A stretch of DNA of 64,000 nucleotides from positions 6,016,001-6,080,000 of the forward strand of contig OY761158.1 in assembly GCA_963664405.1 (NCBI GenBank), written 5' to 3'. Source of the stretch: Thermoanaerobaculia bacterium. Its GTDB lineage: Bacteria; Acidobacteriota; Thermoanaerobaculia; Multivoradales; Multivoraceae. Below the pieces are notes generated by a model, which searched no databases, was not told the origin of the DNA, and saw nothing but the letters and a program-made list of their open reading frames with translations. Of the stretch, positions 7,784 through 38,974 are shown one piece after another; the stretch's first letter is position 1; every line of letters starts with the position of its first letter. The position numbers and the translations under genes are program-made.

Positions 7784-8186
7784 GTGGTCATGGAGGCCTG
7801 TGGCTCCGCGCACTACTGGGGCCGGGAAATAGGAGAGTGAGAGTGAGCACGATAATCGATGGCGGTCCGATCACGATAAGTGATGGTCGCGTAGCCTTTT
7901 GAAGGACTTAGCCGAAGCTGCGTTTCGCTGCCACTTGCCTCAGACGGTCTTGTTCACAGTATTTGATGGCGATTCGAGGAAACCCGATCACGTTGTCTGG
8001 TGGGAATGGGTGTTCCGTTCAAGGTATCTGAGGGCGCAACCAGGGGCCCAAGCGCGATGGAAGCTCGGCGAACCGCCTCGATCGCCCATCAGATAGCGTG
8101 CCGTTCATCCCATCGCTGCGTGTCAGCCCTCGTTCAGCGTGATCAGCGAAAGAACAAGTATGGACTGCGCGTCAGGCCCCGACGGC

Positions 8187-9550
8187 GGATGTGTCCCGTT
8201 TTTTGTGGAAATGGGTTCAGGCGTAGTCCTCCGAGTCGTCTTTTGCTAAATCCTACCGTTTACGCGGCCCTCTCAACCTCGAGCAGGAGCTGAAGCGCCC
8301 GGTAGCCGTTAATCCTTCGCAGGTGTATCTGCCCGAAGGCGACGAGCCCCCAGAGGAGCGTGACGCCGGCAGCCTCGGTGGCAAAGGAGCCCTGGGTTTT
8401 AGTGCGGCGACGAAACTCGCGGTTCAGGTTCTCCAGAGCGTTGGTCGTGCGCACCGAACTCCACAGCGATTTGGGGAGCTCGTAGAAGGTCAGTAGCTGG
8501 AACCCTGCCTCCTCAAGGCTGCGAGCCACCGCCGGGACTAGTCGCGACCACTTGGTGACGAACGCCGCGTAGGCCTTGCGGGCCTGTGCCGCGTCCTCGG
8601 CTCGTACGATCGAGTGCCAGTCACGCCGCAGCTCGTCGTGTGCGTGCACCGGGCAGTGTTTCTTCAGATTCTCCCACTTGTGTTGGACGCAGCGCTGGAC
8701 TTTGACCTCAGGCCAAGCCTTCAGCGCCGCGGCCAGCCCTTTGTGGCCATCCGTGACCAGGTAGCGCGGAGCCTGAAGACCTCGGGCCTTCAGATCCTCG
8801 ATCAGCCACTTCCAGTGCTCGGCGGCCTCGCTCGCGGCTAAACGTAAGGCCACCAGCACCTTGGTGCCGTCCGGAGTCACACCCAGCACCACCAGCACCG
8901 GTACCGAGACCACTCGACGGGCCAAGCGGACCTTCAGGTGAAAGCCATCGAGAAACAGAAGCACGTAGGACTCCTCCGACAGATCGCGCTCACTCCAGCG
9001 AGCAAAAAGCTCCTTCAGCCGAGACACCACACGCGAAACTGCGCTCTTGGACAGGTGCTCCTCACCCAGCAGCGGAGCCAATGCCTTCTTGATCCGGCGG
9101 CTGTTAGCGCCAGCCAGATACGCACCCAGGATCGCGTCATCGACCTCCTGCGTACGACGAGCGTAACGCGGCACGATCGCACTGCGAAACTCTACGCTGG
9201 CCCCATCCTCGCCGACTAGCCGTCCTCGTGGAATGTCCAGTTCCTTCGACCCACACGCCGTCGTGATCAGACGACGCTGCTTGCCGTTGCGATAGCCCGC
9301 ACGCTCGCCTGAACGCTCGTAGGCGCTGCAGCCCAGCGCCTCGGACAGCTCTTCCTCGAGTGTGATCTCGATCGCCGCACGAACACGCTCGCGTAACAAC
9401 GAACGAATGTCCTGACGGAAGCGTGCAGCTTCCCCTTCCTCGTTGATATTCTCCACCATGGCGTAATCCTCCGTTCGCCCTAACCGGCGATGTGTTTGAC
9501 CACTAGGAGGTTACGCCATTCTCAATTTCCACAGCATTCGGGACGGATCC
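8187..9550 (-). mobile_element. IS256-family insertion sequence
   Basis: Imperfect TIRs (GGATGTGTCCCG...TGTGGAAAT); 8-bp direct repeat CCGACGGC (8179-8186, 9551-9558). Confidence 0.9.
8260..9459 (-). CDS. IS256 transposase
   Basis: GYRNG, LFLDG, VTDGHKGL, QRCVQHK and RTTNALENLNREFRRR motifs. Confidence 0.93.
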   Translation of the reverse strand: MVENINEEGEAARFRQDIRSLLRERVRAAIEITLEEELSEALGCSAYERSGERAGYRNGKQRRLITTACGSKELDIPRGRLVGEDGASVEFRSAIVPRYARRTQEVDDAILGAYLAGANSRRIKKALAPLLGEEHLSKSAVSRVVSRLKELFARWSERDLSEESYVLLFLDGFHLKVRLARRVVSVPVLVVLGVTPDGTKVLVALRLAASEAAEHWKWLIEDLKARGLQAPRYLVTDGHKGLAAALKAWPEVKVQRCVQHKWENLKKHCPVHAHDELRRDWHSIVRAEDAAQARKAYAAFVTKWSRLVPAVARSLEEAGFQLLTFYELPKSLWSSVRTTNALENLNREFRRRTKTQGSFATEAAGVTLLWGLVAFGQIHLRRINGYRALQLLLEVERAA

Positions 9551-11018
9551 CCGACGGCCCGCCTTCGGCGGGGATGATGCCGACGGACCTAGTCTTGAGC
9601 ACACTACTTGAGGGACCAAACACCCTTCCCTCACCTACCGTGCTCAGAATGGCCAACATTCCCATCGATTATCGTGCTCACTCTCAGAGAGCTCGGCCAC
9701 TCGGTCGTCCTGCTGCCACCCCACCTGACCCACCGCTATGTCGGCGCCCACAAGACCGATCGAACCGACACCAAAGGCATGCTCGAGGCGTATCGCAACG
9801 AAGACATCCTGCCTGTCCCTGTCAAGTCGCTCGAGCAACAAACGCTCACCACTCTGCATCGGATGCGCGCGGCCTACATCGGCGATCGTACGGCTCACTG
9901 CAACGCTCTACGCGGGCACTTGCGAGAATTCGGACACTTCATCCCTCTAGGACGTGCGCGCGTCGTGCCGAGGGTCCGAGAGCTGATCGCCGACGCCGAG
10001 ACGGACATCCCCATGGCATTGCGCCCTCACTTCGCAGCGCAATGCGATCAGATCGAGCAGTTCCACGAGCGTATCGCGGAGATCGACAACCACATCCAAG
10101 CGCTCGCCAAACAGCTCGAAGCCGTGCAGCTGCTGATGACCATTCCTGGCATCGGGGTCCTGACCGCCACGGCCCTGGTGGCCTGGATCGGAGATGTCTC
10201 TCGCTTCAAGAGCGGACGCCATCTTGCCAGCTATCTCGGGCTCACGCCGCGCGAACACTCCAGTGGCGCACGACGCTGGCTCGGACGCATCAGCAAACGC
10301 GGCGACGGCTATCTGCGCACGCTCCTGATCCACGGGGCCCGCTCCGTGCTGTCGTGGGCGAAGAGAAAACAACCCCAAGGCCGCCTCCAACAGTGGGCGC
10401 TGCACGTCGATACCCGCCGAGGACCCAACAAAGCCGCCGTTGCCCTCGCCAACAAGTTGGCCCGCATTGTCTGGGCCGTGTGGACCCGTAAGCGCGCCTT
10501 CGAGCCCAAGCCGTTGCTCGCTGCTGCCTAAGACGACCGAACGACCACAACCTACTCGTAACCCCCATCCACTCACAGCTCGATCCAAGGACTTTGATGG
10601 TTTCCAGTCAGACTGGCGTGAGGGCACAAGCCGCTAGGAGCGTTGGCCCTCGAGGCCGTTTTCTCGGACGATTCGGCTCCCTCACGCGCACTTTTCCATC
10701 ATGGCCCGGCGTGCACACATCGTCACGCCAATCTGAGGCCGGAGATACGTCTGCTGTCTGACCTACCACTCTCAGCCCGAAGACCGAGAAAACCAGAATC
10801 TCTCTATGAGTTGAAATCAACTACTTGACACGGGAGTCCAGATACACGCTCCTAGCCCCAGAAAACGCGCCTTCGGCCCGTTTTCCGGCCCATCCCCGCC
10901 TGAGAACTACTCGCCTGTCCGATACTCGGATGATGAAATGGACTCCCTGGCGACTTCGATCGGCATCTGTGTGCCGCGGGTCGCCCAAACCGAAACTCTA
11001 GTACTGGAAGGGAGCCCC

Positions 11019-12056
11019 ATGAAGCATACCGTTATCGGTGTCGACCTGGCCAAGGATGTGTTCGAGATCGCCGTGTCGCATGAGCCGGGAAAGGTGGCGG
11101 ACCGGCATCGAGTCCGAAGAGCTGGCTTTTTGTCTTTCTTCGCACAACGCAAGCCCACGACGGTGGTCATGGAGGCCTGTGGCTCCGCGCACTACTGGGG
11201 CCGGGAAATAGGAGAGCTCGGCCACTCGGTCGTCCTGCTGCCACCCCACCTGACCCACCGCTATGTCGGCGCCCACAAGACCGATCGAACCGACACCAAA
11301 GGCATGCTCGAGGCGTATCGCAACGAAGACATCCTGCCTGTCCCTGTCAAGTCGCTCGAGCAACAAACGCTCACCACTCTGCATCGGATGCGCGCGGCCT
11401 ACATCGGCGATCGTACGGCTCACTGCAACGCTCTACGCGGGCACTTGCGAGAATTCGGACACTTCATCCCTCTAGGACGTGCGCGCGTCGTGCCGAGGGT
11501 CCGAGAGCTGATCGCCGACGCCGAGACGGACATCCCCATGGCATTGCGCCCTCACTTCGCAGCGCAATGCGATCAGATCGAGCAGTTCCACGAGCGTATC
11601 GCGGAGATCGACAACCACATCCAAGCGCTCGCCAAACAGCTCGAAGCCGTGCAGCTGCTGATGACCATTCCTGGCATCGGGGTCCTGACCGCCACGGCCC
11701 TGGTGGCCTGGATCGGAGATGTCTCTCGCTTCAAGAGCGGACGCCATCTTGCCAGCTATCTCGGGCTCACGCCGCGCGAACACTCCAGTGGCGCACGACG
11801 CTGGCTCGGACGCATCAGCAAACGCGGCGACGGCTATCTGCGCACGCTCCTGATCCACGGGGCCCGCTCCGTGCTGTCGTGGGCGAAGAGAAAACAACCC
11901 CAAGGCCGCCTCCAACAGTGGGCGCTGCACGTCGATACCCGCCGAGGACCCAACAAAGCCGCCGTTGCCCTCGCCAACAAGTTGGCCCGCATTGTCTGGG
12001 CCGTGTGGACCCGTAAGCGCGCCTTCGAGCCCAAGCCGTTGCTCGCTGCTGCCTAA
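11019..12056 (+). CDS. IS110/IS1111 DEDD recombinase/transposase
   Basis: GVDLAK, VMEACG, KTDRTD, LGLTPREHSSG and ISKRGDGYLR motifs. Confidence 0.95.
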   Translation: MKHTVIGVDLAKDVFEIAVSHEPGKVADRHRVRRAGFLSFFAQRKPTTVVMEACGSAHYWGREIGELGHSVVLLPPHLTHRYVGAHKTDRTDTKGMLEAYRNEDILPVPVKSLEQQTLTTLHRMRAAYIGDRTAHCNALRGHLREFGHFIPLGRARVVPRVRELIADAETDIPMALRPHFAAQCDQIEQFHERIAEIDNHIQALAKQLEAVQLLMTIPGIGVLTATALVAWIGDVSRFKSGRHLASYLGLTPREHSSGARRWLGRISKRGDGYLRTLLIHGARSVLSWAKRKQPQGRLQQWALHVDTRRGPNKAAVALANKLARIVWAVWTRKRAFEPKPLLAAA

Positions 12057-12140
12057 GACGACCGAACGACCACAACCTACTCGTAACCCCCATCCACTCA
12101 CAGCTCGATCCAAGGACTTTGATGGTTTCCAGTCAGACTG

Positions 12141-12290
12141 GCGTGAGGGCACAAGCCGCTAGGAGCGTTGGCCCTCGAGGCCGTTTTCTCGGACGATTCG
12201 GCTCCCTCACGCGCACTTTTCCATCATGGCCCGGCGTGCACACATCGTCACGCCAATCTGAGGCCGGAGATACGTCTGCTGTCTGACCTA
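12141..12290 (+). ncRNA. Predicted bridge/seek RNA in the IS1111 3' non-coding region (identical copy at about 10616-10765)
   Basis: Stem GCGTGAGGG/CCCTCACGC encloses an internal loop carrying CTAGGAGCGT and CTCGGAC, which match the two strands of the insertion target. The RNA ends are not determinable from sequence. Confidence 0.7.
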
Positions 12291-12380
12291 CCACTCTCAG
12301 CCCGAAGACCGAGAAAACTAGAATCTCTCTATGAGTTGAAATCAACTACTTGACACGGGAGTCCAGATACACGCTCCTAG

Positions 12381-12500
12381 GTTGGGTAGGTCTGGGAATG
12401 GTGATTGCCATTCCCAGACCTACTGATGCCGTTTGGCGCCGCGGACGGCGCGCGTCGCCCATCCGGAGGACCGGATGGCCTCCCTGCTTCGGAAGGGGTG
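12381..12500. repeat. Multi-hairpin REP-like repeat (family A)
   Basis: GTAGGTCTGGGAATGG/CCATTCCCAGACCTAC hairpin, then TTTGGCGCCGCGGACGGCGC, then CCATCCGGAGGACCGGATGG. Confidence 0.7.
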
Positions 12501-12553
12501 CCTCTTGCGGATTGAGCATTTCCAGGCTCCTGGGATATATGCTCCGGTGATCC

Positions 12554-13258
12554 GTGAGCTGGATTTCCGATCCCAATGCCTGGATCGCCCTGGCGGCGCT
12601 GACGTCGATCGAGATCGTTCTCGGTATCGACAACATCATCTTCATCACGATTCTCGTCGGCCGCCTGCCCGAGGCCGAGCGGGGTCGTGCGCGCACGTTT
12701 GGGCTACTGCTGGCGATGCTGACCAGGATTGCCCTGCTCTTCTCACTGACCTTCTTCATGGGCCTCACCGAGCCGCTGCTGGTGGTCCTGGGGCACGAGA
12801 TCTCGTGGCGTGATGTCATCTTGATTGCTGGGGGTCTCTTCCTTTTGGGCAAGAGCACCTTCGAGATTCACGCCAAGCTCGAGGGCGGTCACGGGGCTCC
12901 ATCGTCGGGCTCGCGTGGTGGCTTCTTGATGGTGATGGGCCAGATCGCCCTTCTCGACATCGTGTTCTCCATCGACTCGGTGATCACTGCCATCGGTTTG
13001 GCCGACCAGGTGGTGATCATGGTCATCGCCGTTGTTGCGGCAGTGCTCGTCATGCTAGTTTCGGCAAGACCCATTGGAGATTTCGTCGAGCGGCACCCGA
13101 CCTTGAAGATGCTCGCGTTGAGCTTCTTGCTCTTGATCGGAACAACGCTCGTGGCGGATGGCCTCGGGTTTCACTTCCCGAAAGGCTATGTCTATTTCGC
13201 GATGGCGTTCTCGGTGTTTGTCGAAATGCTCAATCTGCGCTTGCGCAGAGTGTCGTAA
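12554..13258 (+). CDS. TerC family membrane protein
   Basis: EIVLGIDNIIFI and DIVFSIDSVITAIG motifs. Confidence 0.92.
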   Translation: MSWISDPNAWIALAALTSIEIVLGIDNIIFITILVGRLPEAERGRARTFGLLLAMLTRIALLFSLTFFMGLTEPLLVVLGHEISWRDVILIAGGLFLLGKSTFEIHAKLEGGHGAPSSGSRGGFLMVMGQIALLDIVFSIDSVITAIGLADQVVIMVIAVVAAVLVMLVSARPIGDFVERHPTLKMLALSFLLLIGTTLVADGLGFHFPKGYVYFAMAFSVFVEMLNLRLRRVS

Positions 13259-14335: not shown

Positions 14336-14445
14336 GTCTGAGAGTGGTGAATACCACTCTCAGACTCAGTTTGTTGTTTGGCGCCGCGGACGGCGCGTGT
14401 TGGCCATCCGGAGGACCGGATGGCCAACTGGCTTCGGAGCAGGCG
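14331..14445. repeat. Multi-hairpin REP-like repeat (family A), possible bidirectional terminator
   Basis: Perfect 18-bp stem at 14331-14370, followed by the same two downstream hairpins as at 12431-12478. Confidence 0.7.
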
Positions 14446-14540
14446 ATCTTCGGAAGACCTGCTGTTTGGCGCTGCGGTGGCGCGCGTTGCTGATCAGGCG
14501 GACCGGTGGGACCCCTGGCTTCGAAGGAGCGATCTCCTTC

Positions 14541-24632: not shown

Positions 24633-24764
24633 CTAGGCTCCAGAAATGATGGCTATCATTTCCTCCGCCTAGTTGTCTTTTGGCGCCGAGGACGGCGCAC
24701 TCAGGCGTTGCTTCCTATTCGCTCCGGGAAACGGCTCTGGCCGAATACTCGGACACGCTCCTAG
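24633..24764. repeat. CTAG-bounded 128-bp repeat unit (family B)
   Basis: Near-identical to the units at 28105-28364; ends GAATACTCGGACACGCTCCTAG. Confidence 0.85.
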
Positions 24765-24953
24765 CCTGGATTATTCATGAAGCTCCTACTACGGTGCCGC
24801 AGCTGCCTGAATCTACTGCGTTGCGCTCTGACTGGGCGTCCCCGTCGCGCCCCTCGACGTATTGCCCAATACGCCTGCGGTGCTCTCGGTCGCGACGCCT
24901 TGTATCTTCAGGCATCTGCGGCACCTTGCTACGGACCTCATGAATAGTCCAGG
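24765..24953. mobile_element. MITE-like long palindrome M2 (CCTGG-ended)
   Basis: TIR CCTGGA(T/C)TATTCATGA; CTAG on both sides (24761, 24954). Confidence 0.75.
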
Positions 24954-28104: not shown

Positions 28105-28420
28105 CTAGGCTCCAGAAATGATGGCTATCATTTCCTCCGCCTAGTTGTCTCTTGGCGCCGAGGACGGCGCACTCAGGCGTAGCTTCTTATTCGCTCCGGG
28201 AAACGGCTCAGGCCGAATACTCGGACACGCTCCTAGCCTCCAGAAATGATTGATATCATTTCCTCCGGCTAGTTGCCCTTTGGCGCCGAGGACGGCGCAC
28301 TCGGGCGTAGCTTCCTATTCGCTCCGGGAAACGGCTCAGGAGGAATACTCGGACACGCTCCTAGCCTCCGGGAGTGATCGCTATCTAGTTTCTGTTTGGC
28401 GCCGAGGACGGCCCATTCGG
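28105..28420. repeat. Tandem array of family B units (two full 128-bp units plus one partial), separated by shared CTAG
   Basis: CTAG at 28105, 28233 and 28361. Confidence 0.88.
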
Positions 28421-36326: not shown

Positions 36327-36416
36327 CGTTGTCCCCTTCGAAACGACAACGACAACACGGATCCTCGAACCAAGCTAGACGGGCTACGGCGAACTCTTAC
36401 GGTGGAACCGCTCGCT

Positions 36417-36508
36417 TTACTCGAGCTCGTAGCTCTCGTCTAGCCCCGGCGAATAGATCGGCGGATTGCCGCGCCAGTGGCCCTGCAGAAAGCGGACCGA
36501 TGACTCCA
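36417..36508 (-). repeat. Orphan 92-bp copy of the 3' end of gene 37952-38974
   Basis: Matches 37952-38043 apart from two substitutions. Confidence 0.9.
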
Positions 36509-36646
36509 CCCTGGTGCACCCTGGAACGGTGCCACCCTCTTGGTCCAGGAGCTACCTCCGAAAGCCAACTAACCCGTCGACCCCAGCCTCCTGCAAGGTG
36601 TTCGCCCCGGATCGCGTCCTCTACTTTCAGGAGGACCCAGGCACCA

Positions 36647-37582
36647 GTGCGAAGACCCAGAGGATTAGTTGCAGATCGCCTCGTCGAAGTCACCACACGG
36701 ACATCTCAGGGTCGCTACCTACTCAGCCCCTCCCCCGAAGTGAATCGGACCATAAAGGGTGTCATCGGCCGGGGCCAGAGACGGACCGGAATCGACATCT
36801 GTGGCCTCGCCTTCATGTCCAATCACGCCCACATGCTCCTCGTCCCGGAGAGCACTGAACAGCTCAGCGAGTTCATGGGATTCGTGAACGGAAACATTGC
36901 TCGCAAGGTCGGCCCTCTCCAGGGCTGGCGGGGCAGGCTCTGGGAGCGGCGCTACCAGCACATCATCATCTCCGACGAGCCCGAAGCTCAGATCGCTCGT
37001 CTGAAGTACCTCTTCTCCCAAGGCACCAAAGAGGGCTTGGTACGCCATCCCTTGGATTGGCCCGGGGTTCATTCTGCCGGCGCGACCCGGCGAGGCTATC
37101 GAGAGATGACCGGTGGTGTTTGGCATGACCAGACCGCAGAAGGCAAGGCTCGAAGAGCCGGTAAAATACTGACGCCACAGGAGTTCCTCATCGAAGAGGT
37201 GATCCGGTTGAGTCACGTTCCGTGTCTGGAGGACTGGAGATGGGAGCCGAGGTTGGAGCTCATCGAGCAGCTCCTACACGAGTGCGAGCAGATGGGCCGC
37301 CAACTTCGGGAGGACACCGGCAGACCTCCGATGGGGGCGAAGAAGATCCTCATGCAGGTCCCCGACTTCCGGCCGAAAGAGCTGGATCGATCCCCAGCTC
37401 CAGCCTTTCACGCGGTTTCGAGAGAGGCCTTCCAGAAGCTCAGAAAAGAGCAGAGAGAGTTCGTGAGCCTCTACCGCGAGTCCGCGGAGAAGCTCAAAGA
37501 AGGGGGGCTCGAGGTGGCCTTTCCACCCGGATGTTTCCCACCCCACCTACCCTACGTCCCCGAGGTGCGGGCAGGTCCGTAG
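36647..37582 (+). CDS. Y1 HUH transposase (IS200/RAYT-like)
   Basis: VEVTTRT, FMSNHAHML (HUH), LWERRY, LKY...KEGLV and WPGVHS motifs; RBS AGGAGG before the GTG. Confidence 0.85.
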   Translation: MRRPRGLVADRLVEVTTRTSQGRYLLSPSPEVNRTIKGVIGRGQRRTGIDICGLAFMSNHAHMLLVPESTEQLSEFMGFVNGNIARKVGPLQGWRGRLWERRYQHIIISDEPEAQIARLKYLFSQGTKEGLVRHPLDWPGVHSAGATRRGYREMTGGVWHDQTAEGKARRAGKILTPQEFLIEEVIRLSHVPCLEDWRWEPRLELIEQLLHECEQMGRQLREDTGRPPMGAKKILMQVPDFRPKELDRSPAPAFHAVSREAFQKLRKEQREFVSLYRESAEKLKEGGLEVAFPPGCFPPHLPYVPEVRAGP

Positions 37583-37799
37583 CCGCCTAGTCTGACCGCA
37601 GTTGAAGAAACTCCCGCGGCTTCTTCTGATGGGCTGCTCGGTAGGGGTGTGCCTAGAAACGGGGTTTTGGGTGGCCTGGCGGCCACTCCGGTCCGTCATG
37701 GGGGTTGGGGCCTTAGAAGCGGCGAACTCGAGCCTTACTTTTCAACTTCATCGAGTCGAAAGACCTTCTGAGATGTGTCACGGTGGCCGTCAGGGGATA

Positions 37800-37901
37800 T
37801 AGGTGGGAAAGAGGGTGACACTTTTCTGGGGATGGAGCTTTGCCTCAGCTAGGTGGGAAAGAGGGTGACACTTTTCTGGGGATGGAGCTTTGCCTCAGCT
37901 A
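37800..37901. repeat. Perfect tandem 2 x 50-bp repeat containing GAAAGAGGGTGACACTTTTC
   Basis: Direct inspection. Confidence 0.9.
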
Positions 37902-37951
37902 CTTCACCAACTGGCAACACCATCAACTCGATCAGCTGTTCGGGCGCCGCC

Positions 37952-38974
37952 TCACTCGAGCTCGTAGCTCTCGTCCAGCCCCGGCGAATAGATCGGCGGA
38001 TTGCCGCGCCAGTGGCCCTGCAGAAAGCGGACCGATGACTCCAGGGTGAGATCCCCCCGCCTTCGCAGTGCCTCGACGCAGGCGTCGTAGGCGGGGCCGT
38101 CACCGCCGAGCTTGACCATCACCGGCGGGCGCGTCGCCTGCCAGTGCTCGTAACTGACGTAGCGCACCATCATGTAGGCCTCGTCGTAGCTGGGGTCTTC
38201 GGCGGGCAGGTCGCTTCCACCGGTCGTCGGCGTATTCGCTTCCAGACCCTCGCTCTCACCCGGCAGCGGATAGACCCTCAGCCATTGACCGACGATGCGC
38301 GCTCCCATCTTCTCGAAGTAGGGCCACACTCCGTCTTCGCTCAGGCTGCGGACCTGTGCAAAGGTCCCCTTCTTGATCCTGAAACGCCGCAGGGTGACGA
38401 TTTCTTGGCCCGGCTTGTAGCGACCGTGGCGCACCGGATGCACCGAGGACTCTCCCTCGACCTTTCGATAGCTCTCGTCGAGAGGGGGAAAGTAGTAGGG
38501 CACATTGGGCGCCATCGCTCCCTCCAGGTAGATCGGCCCGTCGGAGCCAGTGGTCACACTGCGTCGTATGGCCGCGGCCTCGCGCATCGCATCCCAGTCT
38601 GGGCCGTTGCCACCAAGCTCGGCACCACGTCGCGTCGCAGCCCAGTGGTTGAAACTGCGGTATCGCGCTATCCGATAGCCCTCGTCGTCACCGGCCGGCT
38701 TGCCACCCTGCGGGTAGACCACTTGCCACTGACCGACGTTGCGATTTCCGAGCTTCTCGTAAAACGGCCACACTCCGTCTTGCGACGCTCTCAGGTAGGT
38801 GTCGTGCGTTCCCGGCTTCAGTTGCTGGTGACGAAGAACCAGAAACTCGGTCCCAGCCTGGGATGTGCCATGGCGAACCGGGACGGGCTCCTGCGCTGTG
38901 ACGTCGGAGGACATGGTTGCGAACCCGAGAAGAACACAGATCCACCCACGAACTAGTCTTTTATCGCGCGACAC
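37952..38974 (-). CDS. Secreted protein with two NIPSNAP-like repeats
   Basis: Internal duplication of LR...K.GT...S.DGVWP..EK.G...VGQW...Y.S..HW.ATR. Confidence 0.7.
   Translation of the reverse strand: MSRDKRLVRGWICVLLGFATMSSDVTAQEPVPVRHGTSQAGTEFLVLRHQQLKPGTHDTYLRASQDGVWPFYEKLGNRNVGQWQVVYPQGGKPAGDDEGYRIARYRSFNHWAATRRGAELGGNGPDWDAMREAAAIRRSVTTGSDGPIYLEGAMAPNVPYYFPPLDESYRKVEGESSVHPVRHGRYKPGQEIVTLRRFRIKKGTFAQVRSLSEDGVWPYFEKMGARIVGQWLRVYPLPGESEGLEANTPTTGGSDLPAEDPSYDEAYMMVRYVSYEHWQATRPPVMVKLGGDGPAYDACVEALRRRGDLTLESSVRFLQGHWRGNPPIYSPGLDESYELE

Follow-up and report, generated by a model that had tools for sequence, protein, structure and literature searches.

An IS1111-group insertion sequence in an Acidobacteriota-like genome with a predicted 3′ guide RNA that matches its repeat-end target

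The window analyzed here, a stretch of 64,000 nucleotides, carries an intact IS1111-group insertion sequence on the + strand at positions 10931–12369 (1439 bp), which we call IS-A. Its extent was obtained by comparing occupied sites with 61 empty sites, and its probable boundaries, TGATG...CCAGATA, were placed by homology of the ends with a sister element (in G001) whose ends are unambiguous; base 10930, an A, could be assigned to either the target or the element. The left end (10931–10950) begins with an 8-nt extension, TGATGAAA (10931–10938), followed by the left subterminal inverted repeat, TGGACTCCCTGG (10939–10950). The right end (12350–12369) comprises a TTGACA −35 box (12350–12355), the right subterminal inverted repeat, CACGGGAGTCCA (12354–12365), and a GATA extension (12366–12369). 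The two repeats pair over 9 perfect bp, or 12 bp with 2 mismatches (relatives were examined by an inverted-repeat scan), and the terminal extensions measured from the TGGAC core are 8 + 4 nt (9/3 or 8/4, depending on where the ambiguous A is placed). Between the ends lies a transposase/recombinase gene encoding 345 aa (11019–12056, + strand), with 313 nt of non-coding DNA on its 3′ side (12057–12369) versus 88 nt on its 5′ side (10931–11018).

The transposase matches PF01548 (DEDD_Tnp_IS110) over residues 6–146 with an E-value of 9.6e-14 and PF02371 (Transposase_20) over residues 212–289 with an E-value of 8.6e-29. The catalytic D/E/D/D residues are presumably those within GVDLAK, MEACG, and KTDRTD, which we take as candidates by motif. 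Residues 212–330 of the 345 align to the IS621 transposase (8wt6; E-value 8.6e-10), an alignment that covers only the C-terminal domain, including the SG region, and in which GLTPREHSSG, starting at residue 249, represents the GL-P----S(T)G motif and is aligned to GLTPRRYESG of IS621. The DEDD and PF02371 domains, the GL-P----S(T)G motif, the subterminal repeats, and the long 3′ non-coding region place IS-A in the IS110 family, IS1111 group.

IS-A is present in additional copies, and all of them, along with those of a second element, occupy one target. A second full copy lies at genome positions 5487778–5489217, there is a 233-nt 5′ fragment, and a sister element that is 71% identical to IS-A (IS-B) has three copies. 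Another copy of IS-A (copy 1) is split into three pieces, which include a 3′ part at 9687–10844 (element nt 283–1440, with its own copy of the RNA at 10601–10767) and a 54-nt piece at 7784–7837 (element nt 234–287), both on the + strand. Mapping the genomic copies and their flanks, a check that the initial annotation had proposed, placed all copies of IS-A and IS-B in CTCGGA/CACGCTCCTAG (the slash marks the joint), in a single orientation relative to the site and with none at unrelated sequence; three right and three left ends of IS-A share the site. The intact copy in the window (copy 2) is flanked on the left by ...ATACTCGG and on the right by CACGCTCCTAG. Its left half-site, ATACTCGGA (10922–10930), is the end of an 85-nt repeat unit (10845–10929), and its right half-site occupies 12370–12380; both are on the + strand and were read directly and compared among copies. 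The right flank of copy 1 (10845–10855) is identical.

The uninterrupted site, CTCGGACACGCTCCTAG, had been annotated initially at three repeat ends in the window, and it is indeed found there, starting at 24748, 28220, and 28348 (24748–24764 at the end of a 128-nt repeat, and the same sequence at 28220–28236 and 28348–28364, all on the + strand). Genome-wide, there are 61 exact copies at repeat ends and 85 within 2 mismatches. The target is the conserved 3′ terminus of two repeat families resident in the genome, about 87 and 128 nt long and ending in CTCCTAG. Comparison of the IS-A and IS-B insertions with the 61 empty sites gave no duplicated target bases. The contigs of four public runs confirmed IS-A together with its repeat flanks.

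The 3′ non-coding region carries a conserved predicted RNA structure with covariation support. The predicted structure, of the bridge or long-seekRNA type, is about 156 nt long (12132–12287, + strand) and was derived from folding, a covariance model built across homologs (R1), and RNAalifold. An outer stem, P1 (12132–12138/12281–12287), encloses a target-binding arm and a donor arm. The target-binding arm (12141–12212, + strand) is built from P2 (12141–12149/12204–12212, with strands GCGTGAGGG and CCCTCACGC), P3 (AGCCG at 12154–12158 and CGGCT at 12199–12203), and P4, a GGCC hairpin (12170–12173/12179–12182), with compensatory changes in every pair of P2, P3, and P4. The donor-arm hairpin (12228–12265, + strand) is built from P5 (12228–12231/12262–12265) and P6 (12233–12238/12249–12254). 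The positions given in the initial annotation for the stems, the loop segments, TTGACA, and the flanks all agree on direct reading.

The covariance model that had been called for gave 80 matches in 86 sources. Most of them lie immediately after the transposase gene, on its 3′ side; a weak match (L045:708–817) and a second match in L065 do not. In the genome that carries IS-A, R1 has seven matches, all of them within IS copies, and there are no solo copies of the RNA. In the R1 alignment, 84.2% of the cells are paired versus 65.9% in shuffles, and compensatory changes affect 31 of the 34 pairs versus 14–21 when the pairing partners are slid, with 0 of 500 shuffles reaching the observed values; the alignment used for these counts was fitted to the R1 model, which favors the structure. 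RNAalifold alone recovers P2, P4, P5, and P6, where 17 of its 20 pairs are compensated, and the many G-U pairs are consistent with an RNA on the + strand. A scan of 10500–12700 against Rfam with E-values up to 1 returned no family, and a promoter scan of the integrated copy returned no promoter-like site. Among the listed public runs that contain the element, none is recorded as an RNA run. One terminator-like match, formed by the P4 hairpin and a U run, occurs at chance rate.

Two segments in the internal loop of the target arm match the target. The right target guide, CTAGGAGCGT (12159–12168, + strand, within a feature of 12159–12169), is complementary over 10 nt to the top-strand sequence ACGCTCCTAG, and its pairing starts at the second base past the joint, so that one C is skipped. 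U12169 might act as a handshake base, pairing with the A that precedes the joint. The left target guide, (TT)CTCGGAC followed by GAT (12186–12197, + strand; CTCGGAC at 12188–12194), has the same sense as the top strand of the target, and its GAT matches bases 2–4 of the left end. Its match to the empty sites extends over 9 nt (TTCTCGGAC) in 35 of the 61 and over 7 nt in the remaining 26. Within the IS-A RNA, the match to the top strand comes first (5′), ahead of the match to the bottom strand. When the 313-nt non-coding region was shuffled 20,000 times with dinucleotides preserved, 10 shuffles produced a right-flank match of 10 nt and 1 produced both guide matches together. A 7-nt match to the left half-site arose in 3644 of the 20,000 (18%), and the 7-nt left guide match is therefore weak when taken alone.

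The target guides also covary with the flanks among relatives. For 36 distinct relatives, the mean longest match between right guide and right flank is 6.50 nt in cognate pairs versus 3.35 nt in non-cognate pairs, with matches of at least 7 nt in 19 of 36 cognate pairs versus 12 of 1260 non-cognate ones. The left guide, compared with the left flank only, gives 5.39 nt versus 3.38 nt. For each guide, 0 of 2000 permutations reached the observed mean, although these tests overstate independence because shared ancestry gives related elements common guides and flanks. IS-C (L008) was usable for the right guide and flank only, since its left end is missing. The nearest relative, L011 (55% amino-acid identity), has the guide CAACGUCCGU and the flank A/CGGACGTTG and by this comparison is a retargeted element. 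Occupied L011 sites are enriched for the base paired by the left guide, which is T in 8 of 10 occupied sites versus 6 of 26 empty sites (Fisher p 0.003).

One metagenome contig (run X14) has a right junction, ...CCAGATAC/GCTCCTAG, that is two bases shorter than that of IS-A here. A pattern scan of metagenomes yielded three loci (L129, L130, and L131). The RNA is present in L130 alone, and L129 and L131 gave 0 matches to the RNA model and no TTGACA/subterminal-repeat motif before the matched end. Because L130 keeps the longer spacing, CAGGCTCCTAG, we leave the short junction as a single unverified observation; the right guide of L130 is unreadable because the locus is cut within the target arm. 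We also considered whether the X14 junction is the "ideal" site that the guide would predict, CTCGGA/CGCTCCTAG, and rejected this, as that site has 0 matches in the genome carrying IS-A.

The donor segments flank the second hairpin. The right donor guide, CATCAT (12222–12227, + strand), is complementary to A/TGATG at the predicted circle junction, and the left donor guide, AGATA followed by C (12268–12273, + strand; AGATA at 12268–12272), has the same sense as the right end, ...CCAGATA. The C after AGATA matches the flank and not the left end; both the left target guide and the left donor guide have C where the left end has T. Joining of the ends would also place a predicted −10 box, TGAAAT (10934–10939, + strand), 17 bp after TTGACA, a spacing that exists only in the circle. 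The joined ends have 0 matches in the genome and none in the contigs of the four runs, although contigs cannot show rare forms.

The reading that we favor, with a probability of roughly 0.87, is that IS-A is an active-looking IS1111 element whose 3′ non-coding region specifies, on the transposase strand, an approximately 156-nt guide RNA of the bridge or "long seekRNA" type, with guides for both target and donor. The guide role is supported because the RNA is conserved, the guides covary with the flanks, and a donor guide covaries with the junction. We infer that IS-A expresses this RNA, that the transposase binds it, and that it steers recombination, with the two guides in the internal loop of the target arm directing the recombinase to CTCGGA/CACGCTCCTAG. 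The donor segments would sit in a multiloop on either side of the second hairpin, CAUCAU reading the top strand of A/TGATG and AGAUA the bottom strand of ...AGATA/, so that both would read the joined ends of an excised circle. Formation of that circle would create the TTGACA-17-TGAAAT promoter. We would place the crossover between the A and the C of the target site and, on the element side, at the junction of ...GATA with TGATG..., probably with no true shared core.

The last point departs from the initial annotation, in which an apparent 1-nt core was described. On a full core model, the shared A (10930/12369) would be required in both donor and target and would be read by all four guides, as is the CT of IS621. 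The six full IS-A and IS-B insertions, compared with the 61 empty sites, do leave exactly one ambiguous A. This A is included in the left target guide (CUCGGA), the left donor guide (AGAUA), and the right donor guide (CAUCAU), and bulging of one C would allow U12169 to pair with it; in several relatives, moreover, the boundaries inferred share 1–3 bases at the joint. Against this, 10 occupied and 27 empty sites of the sister element in G001 show donor and target with no base in common at the joint: the target is ATCTTCN/CGGACG, the element is TGATGAG...CCAGATA, and among the 10 occupied sites and the 26 simple empty ones N is always T or C, with no A. Furthermore, the base shared in the relatives is the first base of the left end, a position at which IS-A carries T and its target C, and IS1111 elements are reported without duplication in the accessible part of PMC11187229. 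In the closest relative for which occupied and empty sites can both be compared, no base is shared. It is more likely that the A is the last base of the left half-site and equals the last base of the right end by coincidence, and we consider a required core of one nucleotide in IS-A doubtful and, as a mechanism, unlikely.

A staggered 2-nt core with a C/T mismatch was considered as well and rejected; it predicts opposite alleles at the two junctions in half of the insertions, which is seen in 0 of 6 copies here and 0 of 10 in G001, and the alternative junction strings of this model are absent from the genome. A search of the supplementary files of PMC11208160 turned up no table of core lengths for IS1111 elements; the extended-data figures of that paper give cores for three IS1111 elements and may bear on the question. 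A further, speculative and rather unlikely suggestion is that the subclade of IS-A, IS-B, IS-C, and the L011 type recombines without any base shared between donor and target at the joint. In this subclade, the two bottom-strand guides carry a conserved C at the position of the left-end T, and the right target guide and left donor guide together would read the inserted right junction at least as well as the free substrates. Outside the IS-A subclade, the left donor segment has, just past the joint, the base with which the left end begins (C or T). If the suggestion were true, it would imply a strand-exchange geometry with no core requirement, for example transfer of the top strand only, as was recently proposed for IS621 (bioRxiv 10.64898/2026.08.31.748434, available portion), and the subclade could then serve as a natural starting point for bridge recombinases that are not bound by a core dinucleotide. 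The crossover details themselves (no convincing core, a skipped base, and a conserved C for T) could inform how strict the core rule is in this branch.

A very unlikely alternative is that the RNA is a seekRNA for the target only, the ends being recognized by protein through the subterminal inverted repeats and the CATCAT and AGATA matches being due to chance or structure. The donor matches in IS-A are short (6 + 5 nt), and the right donor segment has almost no covariation across the family (4.84 nt in cognate versus 4.63 nt in non-cognate pairs, as means). Long subterminal repeats are present in IS1111 elements (PMC11187229), and the published short seekRNAs of 82–96 nt would span the target arm alone (PMC11187229 and PMC13604230, in the parts available). 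However, the left donor segment, compared with the predicted circle junction in 37 relatives, matches 7.08 nt on average in cognate pairs versus 4.88 nt in non-cognate pairs, and it varies with the right-end extension (ACA, ATA, AGA, or GATA) as well as with the initial base of the left end. The right donor segment, although its match across the junction is 6 nt in IS-A, spans the joint with matches of 8 nt in IS-B, 7 nt in L011, and 8 nt in L081, and donor-binding bases in the multiloop are reported for IS1111 in the accessible text of PMC11208160. That there is no functional RNA at all, the stems arising at the DNA level or by chance and the matches being a captured piece of the target repeat, is exceedingly improbable: the fold of the single sequence is indeed unexceptional (z −1.40), but the compensatory covariation is strong and includes G-U pairs, the match to the repeat ends after 10 nt with no continuation into repeat sequence, and the guides differ among relatives, each following its own flanks.

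The preferred reading, an IS1111 element with a two-part guide RNA, agrees with the identification of an IS1111 bridge/seek RNA made at first annotation, and it draws on the domains, the RNA covariation, and the covariation of guides with flanks and of a donor segment with the junction. Its features match those published for IS1111 seekRNAs and bridge RNAs (PMC11187229, PMC11208160), and we therefore consider IS-A a known kind of system; the comparisons that follow refer to the accessible parts of the papers cited. ISEc11, ISPa11, ISKpn4, and ISPst6 (PMC11187229) likewise have a DEDD transposase of 330–350 aa with GL-P----SG, subterminal repeats, a long 3′ non-coding region, no duplication, and a junction promoter, the last being predicted in IS-A. 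ISPa11 also targets repeats, and in the IS1111 seekRNAs (section "A seekRNA finds the target") the top-strand match again lies 5′ of the bottom-strand match. Long forms of seekRNA measure 148–172 nt (PMC11187229; Table 1 of PMC13604230), a range that includes the predicted size of the IS-A RNA. The published IS1111 extensions are 7 + 3 nt as opposed to 8 + 4 in IS-A, and the published target matches overlap, whereas the two of IS-A abut (PMC11187229). For the elements of that paper, seekRNA co-purification, transposition, and reprogramming were shown, whereas the case for IS-A comes from sequence comparison.

IS621 (PMC11208160, PMC11208158) also has an RNA in two parts, in which target and donor are each read on opposite strands by a left and a right guide, and extra bases adjoining its right guides can form a handshake with the base of the partner that immediately precedes the joint; IS-A has candidate bases of this kind. 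In contrast to IS621, IS-A has its RNA at the 3′ rather than the 5′ end, its guides come in the opposite order, those for the donor lie in a multiloop, and no CT-like dinucleotide core is evident; a shared core belongs to the IS621 model and not to the description of IS1111 seekRNAs. ISPpu9 and ISPpu10 (PMC12288879; bioRxiv 10.64898/2026.03.19.712850) insert repeatedly at one conserved position of an intergenic repeat and leave many sites empty, as IS-A does, but in another host and in other repeat families. Extra copies of ssr9 are reported for ISPpu9, in contrast to the absence of solo RNA copies in the Acidobacteriota-like genome of IS-A. The novelty that the initial annotation attached to the element does not stand, since targets of the REP type, 3′ guide RNAs, and multiloop donor guides have all been described already for IS1111 elements. 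IS-A is a clear and well-documented but ordinary example of an RNA-guided IS110/IS1111 element. It brings recombinase, guide RNA, donor ends, and target together in one complete natural example from an Acidobacteriota-like genome, in which 61 empty sites and two sister elements make every part of the IS1111 model readable and usable for a reprogramming assay.

The reading of IS-A (the element at 10931-12369, copy 2 of its kind) as an IS1111 insertion sequence with a bridge/seek RNA is supported by its transposase domains, by covariation in the RNA and by guides that track their flanks. The initial annotation's coordinates proved accurate on direct reading of the sequence. The 1439-bp element has an 88-nt left end, a 345-aa transposase gene (11019-12056), a 313-nt 3′ non-coding region and subterminal inverted repeats at 10939-10950 (TGGACTCCCTGG) and 12354-12365 (CACGGGAGTCCA). 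The transposase carries PF01548 and PF02371, both IS110-family transposase domains, and its C-terminal part, GLTPR..SG stretch included, aligns with the IS621 transposase (8wt6, E 8.6e-10). Once the ends are joined, TTGACA would lie 17 bp before TGAAAT as a putative junction promoter, and a promoter at the circle junction is known for the IS1111 family (PMC11187229).

The host genome is a single 6.78-Mb contig, with the window at 6016001-6080000. It holds a second full copy of IS-A (genome 5487778-5489217), copy 1 in three broken pieces (genome 5984689-5984921; window 7784-7837 and 9687-10844), three copies of its sister IS-B (71% nucleotide identity to IS-A) and one 5′-truncated copy of a third element, IS-C. 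The left flanks of IS-A and IS-B all end in (A or T)(A or T)CTCGG and the right flanks all start with CACGCTCCTAG; mapping of copies and flanks, as the initial annotation had advised, puts every IS-A and IS-B copy in the same site. The empty 17-mer site, CTCGGACACGCTCCTAG, has 61 exact matches genome-wide (85 at ≤2 mismatches), always where a repeat from either of two families (~128 and ~87 nt; 24633-24767, 28105-28367, 10845-10929 and genome-wide) has its 3′ end, and the three empty sites claimed for the window are indeed there. Copies 1 and 2 each lie at the end of one of two neighboring repeat units. As single strands, the 128- and 87-nt repeats fold to hairpins (z -3.8 and -2.3, respectively). 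Both families start with CTAG, end with CTCGGACACGCTCCTAG and commonly form tandem arrays. A further short repeat family, GTTTGGCGCCGCGGACGGCGCG...CCATCCGGAGGACCGGATGG, lies directly right of IS-A (12422-12493, 14367-14438, 14463-14525), its core in common with part of the 128-nt repeat.

Copy 2 differs from the 3′ part of copy 1 solely by T (12319) versus C (10794), at a non-coding position that the RNA structure does not include; contigs of all four runs compared have C there. Copy 1 is interrupted by a 1849-bp insertion sequence (7838-9686) with 25-bp terminal inverted repeats (TGAGAGTGAGCACGATAATCGATGG), a 5-bp duplication (GAGAG) and, on the minus strand, a 399-aa Mutator/IS256-type transposase (PF00872, E 2.2e-87). 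Its nt 233 and 234 are also ~38.9 kb apart (genome 5984922-6023783, ending at window 7783), a gap for which a large insertion or some rearrangement could account; we looked for a duplication at its two joints and none was visible. Unrelated to IS-A are an exact 50-nt tandem duplication (37800-37899) and a 96-nt direct repeat with copies 1.5 kb apart (36413-38043).

The non-coding segment 12132-12287 folds into an outer stem around two arms. Folded on its own, the sequence has an ordinary energy (z -1.40); the argument for the RNA therefore rests on comparison. We built a covariance model across homologues, also advised initially, from IS-A, IS-B, IS-C and L011, a relative with 55% identity in a Terriglobia assembly. 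It has 80 matches in 86 sources and, in its own genome, matches the seven IS copies only. The RNA is conserved: 84.2% of cells pair versus 65.9% in shuffles, and 31 of 34 pairs have compensatory changes versus 14-21 with partners slid 1-3 columns, in an alignment fitted to the structure and of sequences related to each other. RNAalifold alone recovered four of the six helices, and 17 of 20 pairs showed compensation. An Rfam scan of 10500-12700 (E up to 1) gave no matching family.

The proposed target guides match the insertion site. Both lie in the first-arm internal loop, the right guide (CTAGGAGCGT, 12159-12168) being the reverse complement of ACGCTCCTAG and the left guide (CTCGGAC, 12188-12194) having the left half-site's own sense; the left match grows to TTCTCGGAC at 35 of the 61 empty sites, those reading TTCTCGG. 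Shuffling the non-coding region 20000 times produced the 10-nt match in 10 cases, the 7-nt match in 3644 and the two jointly in one. Comparison across relatives is a stronger test. An inverted-repeat scan covered some 80 loci, of which 54 passed the filters (repeat score ≥10, expected position, model match, no N); with the window element and IS-B added by hand, there were 39 distinct guide pairs, or 36 after removal of three with a loop segment <8 nt. In the same loop columns, right guides match 6.50 nt of their own flank versus 3.35 nt of others', and left guides, against the flank only, 5.39 versus 3.38 nt; none of 2000 permutations reached either value. L011, with guide CAACGTCCGT and flank A/CGGACGTTG (slashes mark joints, the predicted crossover points), is a natural retargeting.

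The candidate donor guides, CATCAT (12222-12227) and AGATA (12268-12272), lie in the multiloop on either side of the second hairpin, where the donor-binding bases of many IS1111 elements sit (Durrant et al., PMC11208160). Circle junctions were predicted by a homologous end rule (4 nt past GTCCA, 8 nt ahead of TGGAC). Of the two segments said to match the junction, that of AGATA tracks it in 37 relatives (mean match 7.08 nt cognate versus 4.88 nt non-cognate), down to the C or T with which the left end starts. The CATCAT segment hardly covaries overall (means 4.84 versus 4.63 nt), but in IS-B, L011 and L081, another relative, it matches 7-8 nt across the joint.

The apparent 1-nt core is doubtful. 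In IS-A just one base, A, can be assigned to either element or target. The genome of L011, G001, has 11 full L011-type copies (94-100% identity); a second type (74-77%) is present there in six or more full-length copies. Ten of the 11 could be parsed, with the site ATCTTC(T 8, C 2)/TGATGAG...CCAGATA/CGGACGTTGAG, and 26 of 27 empty sites, in the same repeat, have the sequence ATCTTC(C 9, G 11, T 6)CGGACGTTGAG. These boundaries are unambiguous, and donor and target have no common base at the joint. In occupied sites the left flank is enriched for a final T (Fisher p 0.003), the base paired by the L011 left guide (UUCU/CGG). By homology, IS-A would span TGATGAAA...CCAGATA, and the ambiguous A would thus be the last base of its left half-site; that the right end also finishes in A would be a coincidence. 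The single ambiguous base is probably no true core.

In IS-A and IS-C, right guide pairing begins at the second base past the joint, one C being skipped. The left target and left donor guides of IS-A, IS-B and IS-C, and the L011 left donor guide, have C directly past the joint, though the left end begins with T. One contig from a metagenome run (X14), covering 11403-12370, carries a 99.5%-identical element with a right junction two bases shorter (...CCAGATAC/GCTCCTAG...), with which the right guide would pair as far as the joint.

As a system, IS-A is no new kind, and the novelty first suggested for it falls away: guide RNAs and repeat targets are already described for IS1111 (PMC11187229, PMC11208160). 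Guide RNAs at the 3′ end were shown experimentally in four members (PMC11187229) and predicted for 93% of catalogued IS1111 elements (PMC11208160), whose reference list points to insertion into resident repeats as a long-known habit. We infer that the IS-A guide RNA is expressed and functional. Its layout is the IS1111-group layout of Siddiquee et al. (PMC11187229), and its guide order, top-strand match 5′, is that published there for seekRNAs. The crossover details are the sole part a specialist might wish to pursue. In IS621, the handshake position is read after strand exchange by extra bases beside the right guides (PMC11208158); the ambiguous A would occupy the equivalent position in IS-A, where U12169 and U12227 are placed such that they may act as handshake bases.
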